A stretch of DNA of 64,000 bases. It comes from Callorhinchus milii (lineage: Eukaryota). Under the pieces are notes generated by a model that was given only the letters and a program-made list of their open reading frames with translations, ran no database searches and was not told where the DNA came from. The stretch's first letter is position 1. Each line of letters begins with the position of its first letter. Both the position numbers and the translations under genes were made by a program. Below, piece by piece: positions 3,157 to 60,170 of this stretch. The stretch lies in NCBI RefSeq assembly GCF_018977255.1, contig NW_024704743.1, positions 26,352,001 to 26,416,000 on the forward strand. The letters are read 5' to 3'.

Positions 3157-29829
<26,673 letters not shown>

Positions 29830-30579: not shown

Positions 30580-30679
30580 AATAGTCAGGCTTTATCCAAC
30601 TCTAAGATGAACTAACTTTGCAGTTCATTTCCCTACACTGACTCTCGTTTCAATTGTGCAGGTAACTTAAAACTGATCC
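30580..30679 (+). repeat. Proximal copy of a duplicated 100-bp 3' splice-acceptor cassette (candidate alternative last exon from 30662)
   Basis: 96/100 identical to 32176-32275 by manual comparison; branch-like ACTAAC/CTGAC, pyrimidine tract, tgcag|GTAAC; AATAAA at 30857-30862. Confidence 0.88.
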
Positions 30680-32175
30680 ATCCCTATGTTGTCCACGTCT
30701 CTAATCTGTCAGATTTTCTTAACAGATTCTCTAAAGTAGCCAGTCTTGCACTTTACATTCTACTTAATATTTTTCTTTCCTCTAACTGTTTGATTTCTAC
30801 AATTCTTTCAGCTCTTCTGTCTACAGTTCAATTTGATTCTTAAGTGTGTTTTTTTTAATAAATTGTAGCCAGTGAAGCATTGCATTCATTTTAGAATACA
30901 TAATACCTCTTATAGCTTATTGTAATGTTCTCTGTTCTGTAATGTTGGACATTTTTTCTCTTTGCTGGGGGTAGAGGCACAAAGGAAGAGGCTAACACAG
31001 AGTCACTTAAACTATGCTTTTTGGTGCAATTACTTGCAGCATTAAGACCTGATTTTGAATTCAGTCCAGGCTGAATGAATGAAGCACTTTTCTGGGATTA
31101 AAATACATTGCTGGAGCAGAATACAATATTTAAGGCATGCCAGATATACGCTGTGAGTTCTCAATGTTAACACAAAGTGCTCAGAAGTGCTCAGAATTGA
31201 ACGGAACTGTCAAATTCCCCAGAATTGGCATTCTCAAAATGATGTATACAATCACATTTTTACACCGCTCCTAAAACATGTGCTACCCCCAGCTTTACAG
31301 GAATGAAAATGAACTATCATTAGACTATTCTAATCTGGTTGACTTTTATATTGACCCAACCTTTTCCACATCACTACAGCAACATTCTTTAATTATTAGT
31401 TTTTATTGCTCTACAACCTTTGATCTTTGAGCTGTTTTGCAGATTCTGTTGCATATTAATTGCCTCTTGGTTTCATTCACTGAACGTCTCTTACTAACTG
31501 ATGAACTTCTCGTATCCTGTAGCCAGTTTAGCAGAGATTCTGTGCATTCTCTTATTCTCTATTTAATAATGAAAAGGGAACTAATGATCTTTTGGAAGAA
31601 TCTACTGCACTTATCTGTCCTCTGATCGAGTCATCTCTACCATTAAATCTTTGTCAACTCCTAATTCCAATTTCCACCTTTTCTCTGTATGCCTTTATTA
31701 TCCTTAGTTGTCAAGTCTCTCTCCCTCTTTACTCTAGTTGCATTTTAATAGATTGGAGTTGTCTGTTGGATAGTTTAAGTTCTAAAGTTTTTCTTTGTCA
31801 TTTACTGCTATTCATAGCACAGTTTAGCTATTGAACATGGGACCTCGCCACTCTACATAGTTCAATAACGCACTCAATAACATGCAGCGGGTTTCCTCAC
31901 TAAGCCATTGGGGGAAGGGACCATTCTTAAGATAATCAAATTAGCCAAGTGTTCGAAACTGTTAACAAAAAACTTTCTTGGGATCACCCATTTAAAAGTT
32001 GATGTGAGAGGACCATGTGATGTAACATGAGATATTCTTATATCTGTATTGCAGAAAAACTTACAAATGGTTTTTTTTTGCAACCAATGAAACTGTTTCC
32101 TGGTTAAACATGGTATCACACTGTCTATGACAGTTGTAACGCATAGGAAAGCTATGTTGCAGAACCATAGTGTCG

Positions 32176-32275
32176 AATAGTCAGGCTTTATCCAACTCTA
32201 AGATGAGCTAACTTTGCAGTTCATTTCCCTACACTGACTCTTGTTTCAATTGTGCAGGTAACCTAAAACCGATCC
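32176..32275 (+). repeat. Distal copy of the duplicated acceptor cassette (acceptor of terminal exon, exon starts 32258)
   Basis: Direct repeat of 30580-30679 at offset 1596; 4 transition differences. Confidence 0.88.
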
Positions 32276-32820
32276 CAAGCCCCCCTCCATTGCCTTGCCC
32301 CTCCAAGCTAGAAGAACAACGTCCCCCAAGAAAAGCTGAACATCCCAATGAAGATAGCTTTAACACCGAGGGTCCCTTCAAGATCTTCCCAAAGTATCTC
32401 CAGACGTCCTGGGTGCCAAATTATTCTTCACCAAAAAGCAAGGAGCCCCAATTGCCTACGGTTTCGGAACAGGTGGCAGTTCAAGAAAAGAGACCTGCTG
32501 AGTTTGTTCAGAAGATTCCCACGGATAATAAAAAGAACCTTTCAGTTCAACCAAGTAATAAAGGGTTCAGCATGGGGAAACGACACGCCGACAGGCTGAA
32601 TGAAGAGTTGGAGGACGCCAGCTCAAAGGCACAGGAGCAGAAACCGTTGCTCAATCAGGACGCCAAGATACTCTCAGCAGCAGCCAGGCGTGTTCAAAAC
32701 CGCCGTTCCTTTAACCGGCCTAGACCTCTGCGTTACCCAAAGCTCCAAAAACTTGGGTCTCTCCCAGTCTCTTGCCACATTCCTCCTCATTCTCTGGAGC
32801 AAGAGGAAACACAGTTTTGA
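32258..32820 (+). CDS. slc9a3: Candidate alternative C-terminal coding exon of NHE3 (187 codons if spliced from exon 15, ending EQEETQF*)
   Basis: Acceptor ttcaattgtgcag|GT AAC CTA AAA CCG; phase 1 matches the end of exon 15; frame open to TGA 32818-32820 and closed by TAA at 32209 upstream of the acceptor; not repeat-like; ends in T-x-hydrophobic. Confidence 0.6.
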
Positions 32821-35524
32821 ACCTTGATTTGCACAGATGCTAATTTTGGTGAAGCCTTCAAAGAAGCCAAATGAGCATATTTTGGTTGTACGGAGCAACT
32901 CTAGAATATCTTTTTTTTTGCAGAATGTCAGTTACTGAAATGGAGTTCTGTCGTGTGTGAATTAAGAGATGTAAAAGACAAATAATGGAGCAGTTGATTG
33001 AAGATTTAGAGGGTGTGGAATTAGTAACCATGTTTTTCCTTAAAACCAACTTCTGGTGTATTGTACAGAAAAGAAATCTGACCGTAGAAAGGCAGAAATA
33101 TTTTATAAATGTGATATAGACTGGAAATTTCCAGTTTATTCCTACTGATCTATTTCTTCATTATCCTGAGCATTTTTTTGTTTTAAATGTTTAATGCTGC
33201 ACATTTCATCATATTGGACATTAGTCACGTGTTTATTTTTTAAGAAAGTTTTGCCATAAATCATTGGTGCCGTAATACTCTAAAACCTACAAGGTGATGT
33301 TAAGCCACTGGTATAGCTCCTGAAAACAACACTGCCACATTACAGTATAGTGTAACGTAAACTGCAAGTAAAAATTACAATCTGGTCCTGGCACTGCCAT
33401 ACAATACCAGCAGATCTGATCTTGCAGGTCATCTCCCTGTACTGAGAAGAGTGTTATTGTAGGCACTGCCGTACTTGAGGAATGAGCAGGGTGCTGTGGT
33501 GAAATAGCTTTTTGTGCTTTTAGCATAAGGTTTTAGCAGATGTGTTTACCAGATTTTGTTTCAAGAAATGATGCATTTTGTTGGGTGAAATGGCATTGCC
33601 TTGCACAAGCTGCTTCACAAGTTGGAATTAGTGCAATATGTTTAAAGCTCTCGCCTGAAGATGGTCGGAGCTCAATCGCTTCCTCCTGCAAAAAGAAATC
33701 TGCCAGAACAATGGTCGAGCGATCTGTTGATCTGAGGATTGTGCGGAAATAGCATGTTGGGCGGAGATCTGGTACCATCCTTAGAATATCGTACGTACCC
33801 ATTACTGGCCCCCTGGAAAGCAAACACGATCAACAGTGACTGAGATATTCTGTGTATCTTTACACCTATTTTGCACAACAGTTATTGCTGTTTTTTACAG
33901 CTTTTAAAAAACTGAAGTTTGTCCCTTTGTTGCCATGAGTGGAGCCTCTAACAAAGGACAAGACATTTAGAATTTAAGTAGCTGTGTTTTCTGGGTTAGT
34001 AAACACAGACCCTGTTTAATGTGAGTGTAATTCAACTGTAAAATCTTTCTTTGCACGTCTTTTTTCTCTGTTTTATTTTCCTTCAGCTTGCAACTGAGAA
34101 GGGTGTCCCCACATTGATCTACTCCGAGGTCTTAGCCAAAGCAGGCAGCACTTGAAGATGTGCAGCTGTACCACACCATCTTTAAGTGCTCGTAAAGACA
34201 TCTGCCTGCAGAGAGCGGGTGATCCACCCTGTCTCCCAGGCCTCTGCTCAGTTGCCTTCCTATTGTAGCACAGCTCAGGTCCATTCAGATTCTTGCCCTT
34301 TGGGGAAATAACAGATTTGGGGAAATAATAAATTTCTTTGTTTCTAGAAACAAACACCGTGATTTTTCGCATACGAATTGCACCGAGGATTTTGCATGTA
34401 AAATAGTGCAAGTCGTATGCAAAAATTCATGGCTTGCTTTTGTAAATATTATTGTACATCACCTGCACTGGCATATAATGGACACTTGAATTTCAAGGCC
34501 ATCTTTTAGTGTAAAAGGTTATCCATTATAGTAGATGAACGTGATAATGTCTTCATATCCCTGCACCTTTAATTGCTTGTCATTGTAACTTTCAAATGTC
34601 ATTGTTTAAGGCATGTTTGCCATGAGCCTCTGGTGCCAAGAAGAGTGGTGGAAAATTAGAGAATACACTTGGATAATGGACTTTTCCTTATCACCCTTCC
34701 TCAGTGTCCTCTCCCCCCCACCCCGCCGCCCACCAAACCACTCTGTGTTATTGTTTATCTCTGTCCATTCTTCTTCCCCCTTGATCACTCCGATGTTTAT
34801 GCACACGTCGAGTGATGTTCAACATTCCTTATTGGCTGAGTCACGTGTGCAAAGGTGTGGGTTCCAACTACCCAATGCACGGCCCATTCTGGTAATCAGC
34901 ACAGGCGGAGTCCAGAGAGAAGTGCCCGATCGTTGCGTGACTAGACTTTTTTTTGGAGGATATGGCTGGCTTGAGGCAGCTATACACCTGGTGATGACAT
35001 GCACGATGGCGTTGCCAGGTGCAAGTGTGCATTTTCCGTGCATGTTCCAATTGGTGGGGTGGGGGGTGGGGAATGGGGGTGCCAATGCGAGCACCAGAGG
35101 CAGGTTCACTACCACCTTTACTTCTCAGCAACCTCGCTGTCACTTGCCTGTGACTGCTGAACAGGCTAAATGCAGTAATAGCTTCAGAGGTTGTACAGTA
35201 TTTTGTACTCCTGATCCTTTTGGTTTAAACAATGGTGTAACCAGATCGGTGACACATAGAACACACCATGATGCTTCTGGGACATTTTAGATGTTGATGA
35301 TTTATGGTGTCCTGCAAATTGTGACATTTTGCTGTGCAGAGGAATCCATGGGAATGCAATGTCCTTTGTTATATGGACAATTGGATATATAAGTTGCCCA
35401 TCTAATGTTATTGAGTTCTACTTCTACAGGGTGGTAATCTGACCAGTCAGTCTGCTTTCTGTCTTCTACATACTTATGGGTTAATATTACATTACTGTAT
35501 GTCTTACTTTTGCAAGCCCAGAAC

Positions 35525-58309: not shown

Positions 58310-58650
58310 GCAGGAAATCCTGTAGTGTAATAGTTAGTGTTCTTGCCTTGCAAACGACAGGAGCCAGGTGGGATGAAATCTTAGGCAAATTTCCTTACTC
58401 CATACACCTCTGTTTGTCAGCAGTAAGTAAGAGCTCGGTTGTTAGTCGATTGGCAGATTTCCTGGAGTAACAAAATAAAAAAAATGTGGTCATTCAATCT
58501 ACAACTGTTTGTGGGATGGTGCTGTGCGCAATTGGCTGTCATGTTTTACCCATAAAATGCACAGTCAATTCACTTTGCAGATATTCTGTGAAGTGCTTTG
58601 AGACGTCTCAATGAAGTGATAAGGTGCTATGTCAAATGGAAGGATTATTA
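58310..58650 (+). mobile_element. tRNA-derived SINE family A, long subfamily
   Basis: Head, ggcaaatttccttactccatacacctctgttt block, tail. Confidence 0.8.
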
Positions 58651-58877
58651 TAGAAGGATTTTCCTTTAAGAGTTTGGGTAAACTGCGTTGATTCTGAGCG
58701 CTCCAAACTTAGAATTGAGTTGTTACATATCAGCTCTGCCAGAGGTAAAGGATTTGGTTCATTACTGGTGGATCTGATACGGATGTTTGCAACCGTAGCT
58801 CGAGTGCTTCGGCTGCAGGCATCTCCTGGAATACCCAGCATTATGCTTGACCAGTGGGGAAACACACTTGCAGCACT

Positions 58878-60170
58878 TCTCTGGTCAAGGTCGCAAACGA
58901 CAAACTGTCCATCTGTGACCAGGATTTCCTCTGCCTCCTCGTCCTCCTTAACCTCTCTGCTGCCTTCGATACCGTGGACCACTCCATCCTTCTCCACCGC
59001 CTCTCACCTCAACCTTCAAGGTTCTTTCCTTGAATGGTTCAGGTCTTTTCTCTCACACCATCTCCAATTTGTCTACACCAACAAGTTCTCTTCCAGCCCC
59101 CACAGAGTCTCATGGGGTGTTCCTCAGGGCTCTGTCCTCGGTTCCCTCCTCTTCAACCTCTACATGCTCCCCCTTGGTGACATCATTGGCAGATATGGGG
59201 TCAAATTCCACATGTAGATGGATGACACCAAATTCTACCTCTCTGCCTCCACTTTCAATTCCAGGACAACTGATGTTCTGACAGACTCTCTGTCAGACAT
59301 CAATCCTGGGTGAGAGCTAACTTTCTACAGCTGAATGTCAGCGAGACTGAGGCCCTCCTGATTAGCTTGTGCCAGCGCCTCCGCACCTCAGGCACTGGCA
59401 GCACCAGCATCCATGGATGCGCACTCCACCTCACCAAGCCAGTCAGGAACCTAGGCATTTTGTTCAACCCTCAACTGTCCTTTCTTCCCCAAATCCTTGT
59501 CATGACCTGCTCTGCCTTTCCCCATCCCCACATTGGCAACATTGCCCGACTCCGTCACTACCTCACCCTTAGTGCGCCAATTCCTTCATACACACATTCG
59601 TCACCTCAAGGCTCGACTATGGAAACTCCCAACTTGTCGGCCTCCCCAACTCTTCCCTCCACCAGCTGCAGCTCGGGTCCTCTCCCGCACCAGGCTCCGT
59701 GACCCCATCACCCCCATCCTCGCCTGGCTCCACTGGCTCCCCATCCCTCAGAGGATAGAGTTCAAAATCCTCGTCCTCTCTTTCAAGGGCCTCCACGGTC
59801 TTAATGCCTCCTACCTCTCTCACTTGCTGACCCCCTATCAACCTGTCCACTCCATCCATTCAGCAGGCTCCGGCCTGCTTCAGGCCTCCCGTCAGACCCA
59901 TCCTACCATCGGTAACTGGGCTTTCAGCCTCTCTGCCCCCACTCTTTGCAACTTCATCCCACAATTCCTTCACCTTGCTCTCTCCCTTGCCTCCTTCAAG
60001 GAACAACTCAAGACCCTCCTTTTCAACTATGCCTCTTTGCCCTCCCTCATCCCAAACCTACTCCCCACCCCCATCACACATGGGTCCTGGGTCCCCGGCT
60101 GTTCAGGACCTTGGGACGTCGTCCTCCCGACGTGAAAGGCACTTTAGAAATGTAATTTTTTTGTTGTTGT
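58878..60170 (+). mobile_element. L2-clade LINE, 5'-truncated, RT to 3' tail, with frameshifts and stops
   Basis: LVKVAND, LLNLSAAFDTVDHSILLHRL, GVPQGSVLGSLLF, HM*MDDTKFY (broken YADD), WLPIPQRIEFK, tail cttgggacgtc...cccgacgtgaaaggc...(ttg)n. Confidence 0.93.

Follow-up and report, generated by a model that had tools for sequence, protein, structure and literature searches.

A two-frame terminal exon of chimaera NHE3 and a probable alternative C-terminus conserved among vertebrates

Within the window analysed here, a 64,000-nucleotide stretch of the genome of the chimaera Callorhinchus milii, the last coding exon of the NHE3 gene (SLC9A3) can be read in two frames, and comparison with other vertebrate proteins makes it very probable that the longer reading is the tail of a real, translated alternative NHE3 isoform. 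In the mechanism that we propose, exon 17 would supply only the last base of a Met codon and a stop when exon 16 is included or read through, giving canonical NHE3 with its S-T-x-M end. Skipping of exon 16, aided by its weak donor, would let exon 17 be read in the other frame, producing a mostly disordered tail; its conserved last ~48 residues would combine the basic stretch RR..RRSF, the site L-x-K-x-x-S-L-P and, as a class I PDZ end, E-E-T-x-L/F. Because both forms would terminate in the last exon, neither is expected to trigger nonsense-mediated decay. It is on the tail that the regulation of NHE3, the sodium/proton exchanger of gut and kidney, acts. The exchanger performs most electroneutral sodium absorption in the intestine, and its loss leads to congenital sodium diarrhoea (PMC10182130).

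The window gene was assigned to NHE3 by its 81% identity over ~620 residues to both the human and the pigeon protein. Its exons match P0001 at 85-100%, the tail query matches P0001 at 98% over the matched part, and PF00999, the Na/H exchanger transmembrane domain, was found on full-length homologues. One Carcharodon model, P0005, has LLNNG where related sharks have LLNDG at a conserved transport motif, which is either an error or a real change. Exons 2-17 lie inside the window and exon 1 about 27 kb upstream, just as the initial annotation had numbered them. Two candidate first exons were seen upstream of the window (G000:C2:26300402-26300542, 49% to P0053, and 26325183-26325371, 81%), and these may correspond to the gill form and the kidney/intestine form that shark NHE3 reportedly makes from separate promoters. 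Degenerate reverse-transcriptase fragments, LINE-like by their translations, lie in introns and downstream (11083-11691 and 25580-25921 on the minus strand, 58635-60169 on the plus strand). Exon 14 (26014-26152, plus strand, phase 0 to 1) and exon 15 (27755-27856, plus strand, phase 1 in and 1 out, ending in G|) are common to both predicted forms; exon 14 holds a 12-nt tandem repeat (26036-26102) of G-K-x-N/H units that expands a PNGK motif found singly in other species.

The phase-1 end of exon 15 (27856) is the donor for both forms. Exon 16 (29579-29825, plus strand), the cassette that encodes the canonical tail to ...ESTL(M), enters in phase 1 and leaves in phase 2; its length of 247 nt is not a multiple of 3, and its GT/AG sites and phases are compatible with skipping. 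Its donor, AAT|gtaatt, is the sole one among the 15 in the window that lacks both a G at -1 and a G at +5. Intron 16 opens with G TAA (29826-29829, plus strand), and a transcript that reads through would end, like the spliced one, in Met-stop: exon 16 left unspliced runs on as ATG TAA (29824-29829), a point missed by the initial annotation. At the exon-17 acceptor (32258, tgcag|GTAACC), bases 32258-32261 (plus strand) read G TAA after exon 16 and (G)GT AA(C), Gly-Asn, after exon 15. The 16-to-17 join yields AT|G TAA and the end ESTLM*, and the 15-to-17 join yields G|GT AAC and 186 further codons to SLEQEETQF*, with TGA at 32818-32820. This long-tail frame (32258-32820, plus strand; 186 residues past the junction Gly), assigned as coding from homologues and prediction, is closed upstream by an in-frame TAA at 32209-32211 (plus strand), 47 nt before the acceptor. 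The two-way reading of the acceptor (Met-stop after exon 16, a long open frame after exon 15) and the upstream closure had both been described in the initial annotation and were reproduced here; the exchange, put there at ~83 residues for a 187-aa tail, comes to 82 residues out and 186 in (+104). A candidate polyadenylation signal for exon 17, AATAAA, was recognised by its sequence at 34327-34332 (plus strand), and 3' of it runs a stop-to-stop frame of 226 codons (34610-35287, plus strand). The genome contains one copy of the tail (1 match). Its open length was dropped as proof of coding, since 6 of the 4140 AG sites in the window, 32258 included, do equally well in opening a phase-1 frame of at least 186 codons; the tail is more than chance because it is conserved, not because it is long.

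Searched alone, the tail recovered 51 of 794 candidate proteins, which come from chimaera, sharks, birds, tortoise, gecko, marsupial and echidna; a six-sequence profile recovered 68 among 7999 and added placentals, human included, and a profile of the last 62 residues recovered 120 among 8000. Among 1.84 billion representatives an HMM search picked out 20 matches, 18 of which are tail homologues and two leucine-rich repeat proteins that were treated as chance. EQEET-x-L/F is present in 154 of the 186 proteins collected, and 127 are complete for the tail from the junction on, which is 91-196 residues long and comes in 98 distinct versions, though the models are unreviewed and the searches select in-frame similarity, so that lineages with a lost frame are under-counted. 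In full-length models from sharks, birds, lizards, marsupials, echidna and placentals the tail normally follows directly on the Gly that ends exon 15, so that the exon-16 skip predicted earlier reappears as the same 15-to-17 join in database models from sharks to placentals. The homologue search that the initial annotation proposed for the tail peptide gave a matching result, with the frame kept from acceptor to stop across the 127 proteins, chondrichthyans included. The human long model has 889 aa (UniProt A0A2R8Y780, GenBank KAI2536880.1/KAI4020692.1; P0099), and both forms are modelled in one species in Stegostoma, Sarcophilus, Anas, Bubo and Otus. A few models depart from the pattern: P0120 and P0186 shift frame, P0127 exits the tail ahead of the conserved end, P0123 and P0158 overrun the end, P0113 is without the RRSF block and P0156 begins with Pro. 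No teleost or amphibian was named among the matches of the three protein searches (51, 68 and 120), nor among the 10 of the 20 HMM matches that were looked up, which is weak evidence of absence. Three mammalian models (P0102, P0108 and P0183) join part of exon 16 in frame to the long tail, a pattern that suggests an internal exon-16 donor or modelling errors. Elasmobranch short forms (P0054, P0058 and P0124) end in ESSV, ETSV or probably ESSM; they have one residue fewer than ESTHM but remain of class I PDZ type.

Conservation is concentrated in the last 48 residues (SAAARRVQNRRSF...LQKLGSLP...EQEETQF; 32674-32817, plus strand). Over eight chosen species (shark, bird, gecko, marsupial, echidna, human and rodent among them) identity to the window is 69-92% in this segment and 14-46% in the rest of the tail, and exon 16 is 52-64% identical in four proteins, so that the end of the tail is better conserved than the canonical exon it would replace. 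That this holds in chimaera, birds and mammals points to a function, seemingly an unstudied one. The region is 3'UTR in the short form and the protein models are automatic, and one could therefore suppose that what is conserved is an RNA-level 3'UTR element and that the models are propagated annotation artefacts. We regard this as extremely unlikely: the frame is kept from acceptor to stop at tail lengths from 91 to 196 residues, residue changes are conservative, the PDZ-type end is fixed at the stop, and the residues stay though composition varies widely by lineage. The start of the tail also bears the mark of two frames. Its first residue is D in 74, N in 15, E in 8 and P in 1 of the 98 distinct tails, and is thus stop-compatible in 97 of them against a 39% background, the tails being related and so not independent; D, N and E codons start with GA or AA, which after a GGT Gly codon gives TGA or TAA in the other frame, the GGT codon being known from the window alone and the other species being represented by protein models.

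The tail is listed as a stand-alone gene in some databases (P0063, P0064, P0088 and P0159), as would be expected of a separate small protein that is translated from a start within the NHE3 3'UTR or made from an internal promoter. These stand-alone models start variously, however; the tails share no common start Met, the chimaera tail has a single Met, a stop closes the frame 47 nt before the acceptor and conservation starts at the acceptor, all of which make a separate protein very unlikely and favour an alternative NHE3 terminus.

For the chimaera itself, the route to each form deserves attention. The 100 nt around the exon-17 acceptor recur with 96% identity at 30580-30679 (plus strand), with AG|GTAA at 30662 and AATAAA at 30857, 195 nt 3' of the duplicated acceptor; the initial annotation had missed this copy. 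Joined to exon 16 it yields the same Met-stop, and joined to exon 15 a 59-aa frame of unrelated sequence. A recent duplication or an assembly artefact may account for the copy, or it may provide the canonical form with an alternative short last exon. By sequence, then, the short protein could be reached in three ways (splicing to 32258, read-through, splicing to 30662) and the long protein in one. The exact 15-to-17 join is absent from all three Callorhinchus models in the cluster, two of which hold the distal tail via other joins. The isoform might be real elsewhere, with the long form rare in the chimaera or made there by another route and the short form ending at 30662 or by read-through. 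The duplicated acceptor with its nearby AATAAA, the other joins in the Callorhinchus models and the divergence of the first part of the tail from shark tails (41-46% identity) all lend themselves to this account, but 32258 is a canonical acceptor in the right phase, the 186 codons are intact and elasmobranch tails share 90-92% identity with the last 48 residues, and we consider it very unlikely. The 15-to-17 splice and its translation probably occur in the chimaera as well.

Support for the two joins comes from different kinds of data. The starts of Logan ORFs were compared with 22 canonical ends, and two of them fit well: P0154, of bird type, begins with a fit to a canonical end and its stop read one base off (0/17 mismatches, 0/1000 shuffles), and P0139, of mammal type, begins likewise in the shifted frame (0/10 mismatches, 0/1000 shuffles). 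Both continue from the shifted canonical end straight into the tail and thus look like spliced 16-to-17 transcripts, which suggests that the same acceptor serves the short form. Weaker fits were given by P0124 (6/13 mismatches, 27/1000 shuffles) and P0136 (5/17 mismatches). The 16-to-17 join thus has indirect support from these ORFs of other species, and the 15-to-17 join is found in database models only.

The conserved end contains three recognisable elements, which by general motif rules would be a basic segment, a site of basophilic-kinase and 14-3-3 type, and a class I PDZ ligand. The basic segment, [RK]RV[QH]xRRSF, occurs in 97 of the 98 distinct tails. L-x-K-x-x-S-L-P (32743-32766, plus strand), a candidate basophilic-kinase site and 14-3-3-type docking motif, is represented by L-x-K-x-x-S in 98/98, with P at +2 in 82/98. 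The window's tail ends in ETQF (32806-32817, plus strand), and EQEET-x-L/F closes every one of the 98. A class I PDZ ligand has S or T at -2 and terminates in a free hydrophobic residue; T at -2 and L or F at 0 are found in all 98. The last four residues differ by lineage (ETQF, ETQL, ETHL, ETPL), placentals having Pro at -1. The exchange of one PDZ-type end for another, as initially annotated, is therefore upheld in that every tail recovered has a class I PDZ-type end, but ETQF itself is not universal and its last two letters vary. The Pro-rich character stressed there fares similarly: three PxxP motifs are present in the window's tail, but the conserved part is the last ~48 residues and not the Pro-rich start. 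The starting IPSPPPLP is confined to cartilaginous fishes, and PxxP was dropped as a key feature since it is not conserved in birds.

Structure prediction by AlphaFold on a 6-sequence alignment gave a disordered, low-confidence tail (mean pLDDT 54.5, pTM 0.13) in which residues 140-146 form the sole predicted helix, with the reserve that the alignment is shallow. The tail matched no family in Pfam (0 families) and no structure in the PDB (best E 0.54), and ESM Atlas returned no usable match. As modelled, it does not qualify as a folded protein domain.

What the tail would do is most readily framed by trafficking. SNX27 binds canonical NHE3 via its final STHM (PMC4472014), so that the end exchanged here is a functional trafficking signal. 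In high-affinity SNX27 cargo the motif has acidic residues at -3 and -5 (PMC7352468); the long end has Glu at -3, -4 and -6 and Gln at -5, and thus fails this rule, carrying one half of it. Since the skip alters neither the transport domain nor the tail as far as exon 15, the long form would most likely perform normal Na+/H+ exchange and be differently anchored, recycled and phospho-regulated, by different partners. We lean slightly towards changed scaffolding or trafficking as the main effect of the long tail. If the isoform is real, its tail might act mainly through the RR..RRSF and S-L-P segment (on membrane, calmodulin or 14-3-3) rather than by a change of PDZ partner. This segment equals the end in conservation (97/98 and 98/98), the only predicted helix lies at residues 140-146, and in placentals -1 is Pro; E-E-T and the final L/F, by comparison, are invariant at the terminus, the usual sign of a PDZ ligand, and we hold this alternative to be possible but rather doubtful.

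The nearest paralogue in the genome lies on contig C14 (G000:C14:12.89-12.93 Mb, minus strand) and shares 61-63% identity with chimaera, pigeon and human NHE3, whereas the NHE3s are 81% identical to one another (two pairs tested). TPPP-family genes lie within 200 kb of each of these two loci and near no others, and Sec6-family genes are found on both contigs and on C9. From these data we inferred that the paralogue is NHE5. Like NHE3 it has a phase-1 exon-15 donor, an exon-16-like segment and a two-frame last exon, the first ~60 residues of which are homologous to those of the NHE3 tail. The exon-16-like segment (L002, G000:C14:12890871-12890673, minus strand) is 199 nt long, ends CA|gtaaat and aligns to NHE3 exon 16 at z 3.8-8.9 for four sequences and 1.9 for a fifth. 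The last exon starts GTAATTTTG, giving Gln-stop or a 184-aa tail. Against the NHE3 tail profile this tail scores an hhalign probability of 91 (E 1e-6, 48 columns); against nine single tails, six give z 5.0-5.7 and gecko 2.5, the window's own (1.0) and the human tail (0.1) show no significant match, and ESM Atlas returned for it leads below 0.9 only. The predicted C14 short form ends HTDQQ, without a PDZ-type end; the donor of its exon-16-like segment is weak, and an in-frame stop follows both on splicing and on read-through. Unlike NHE3, the paralogue is without the conserved 48-residue end and finishes in PQTDL; on these comparisons that end is NHE3-specific. The shared layout and the partly homologous tail suggest that the two-frame arrangement probably predates the NHE3/NHE5 duplication. 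In mammals the skip-type tail is said to be the standard form of NHE5.

The long form shares with canonical NHE3 (SLC9A3, ending STHM) the gene and exons 2-15, and differs in the last 82 residues, including the SNX27-binding end, which give way to an unrelated tail. The long NHE3 models in databases (A0A2R8Y780, KAI2536880.1, RefSeq 'isoform X1'), which are unreviewed, have the same 15-to-17 join and the same conserved end; placental ones differ from the chimaera tail in being shorter (91-146 aa) and ending ETPL. Splice variants that switch a C-terminal PDZ ligand are familiar from the a and b forms of PMCA. A frame-shifting 3'-end splice that swaps tail and PDZ ligand, as in NHE3, also produces NBCe1-C and NBCn2 variants in the SLC4 family, a different family; variants of SLC4A10 are described (PMC3567025). 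In NHE3, unlike those SLC4 and PMCA variants, both forms end in class I motifs. Mosquito NHE3 likewise has long and short splice variants that differ in the C-terminal tail (PMC11148202); the mosquito gene is an insect one, and no insect protein matched in the tail searches. The same 2024 paper describes vertebrate NHE3 splice variants as yet to be characterised (PMC11148202). No description of a long NHE3 isoform was found in the literature searched, which was mostly open-access. Three candidate descriptions were set aside: PMC9922982 is about SLC9A3R1, PMC11203723 gives only a transcript name in a table, and the 'novel isoform' of PMC9105869 is NHE1. The initial annotation knew of no described NHE3 isoform like this one, which agrees with the papers found but not with the databases, which contain it (RefSeq 'isoform X1', human A0A2R8Y780). 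Judged by its sequence record, the long tail would be an ancient alternative C-terminus, annotated in databases and apparently unstudied.

These results have practical consequences. An anti-NHE3 antibody has been raised to rabbit residues 809-831 (PMC4472014), an epitope that falls wholly within the replaced part, so that it would be blind to the long form; if the isoform is real, it would escape antibodies to the canonical end in general. Human variants falling within the first ~400 nt of the 3'UTR would then lie in coding sequence of the long form, and those in the long-tail frame would be filed as 3'UTR. There are patients in whom only one SLC9A3 mutation was found (review, PMC10182130), and one may speculate that a defect of the long form lies behind such cases. 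A broader proposal, for and against which we see the case as evenly balanced, is that cartilaginous fishes and amniotes, human too, make a second NHE3 whose tail is the ancestral NHE3/NHE5 terminal exon, and that, once duplicated, NHE3 turned mainly to including exon 16 and NHE5 mainly to skipping it; the long form would then be NHE3 with an NHE5-like, differently trafficked tail, and chimaera NHE5 would likewise have a hidden short form. A well-studied transporter would thus probably have a little-studied second form, with models from sharks to human.
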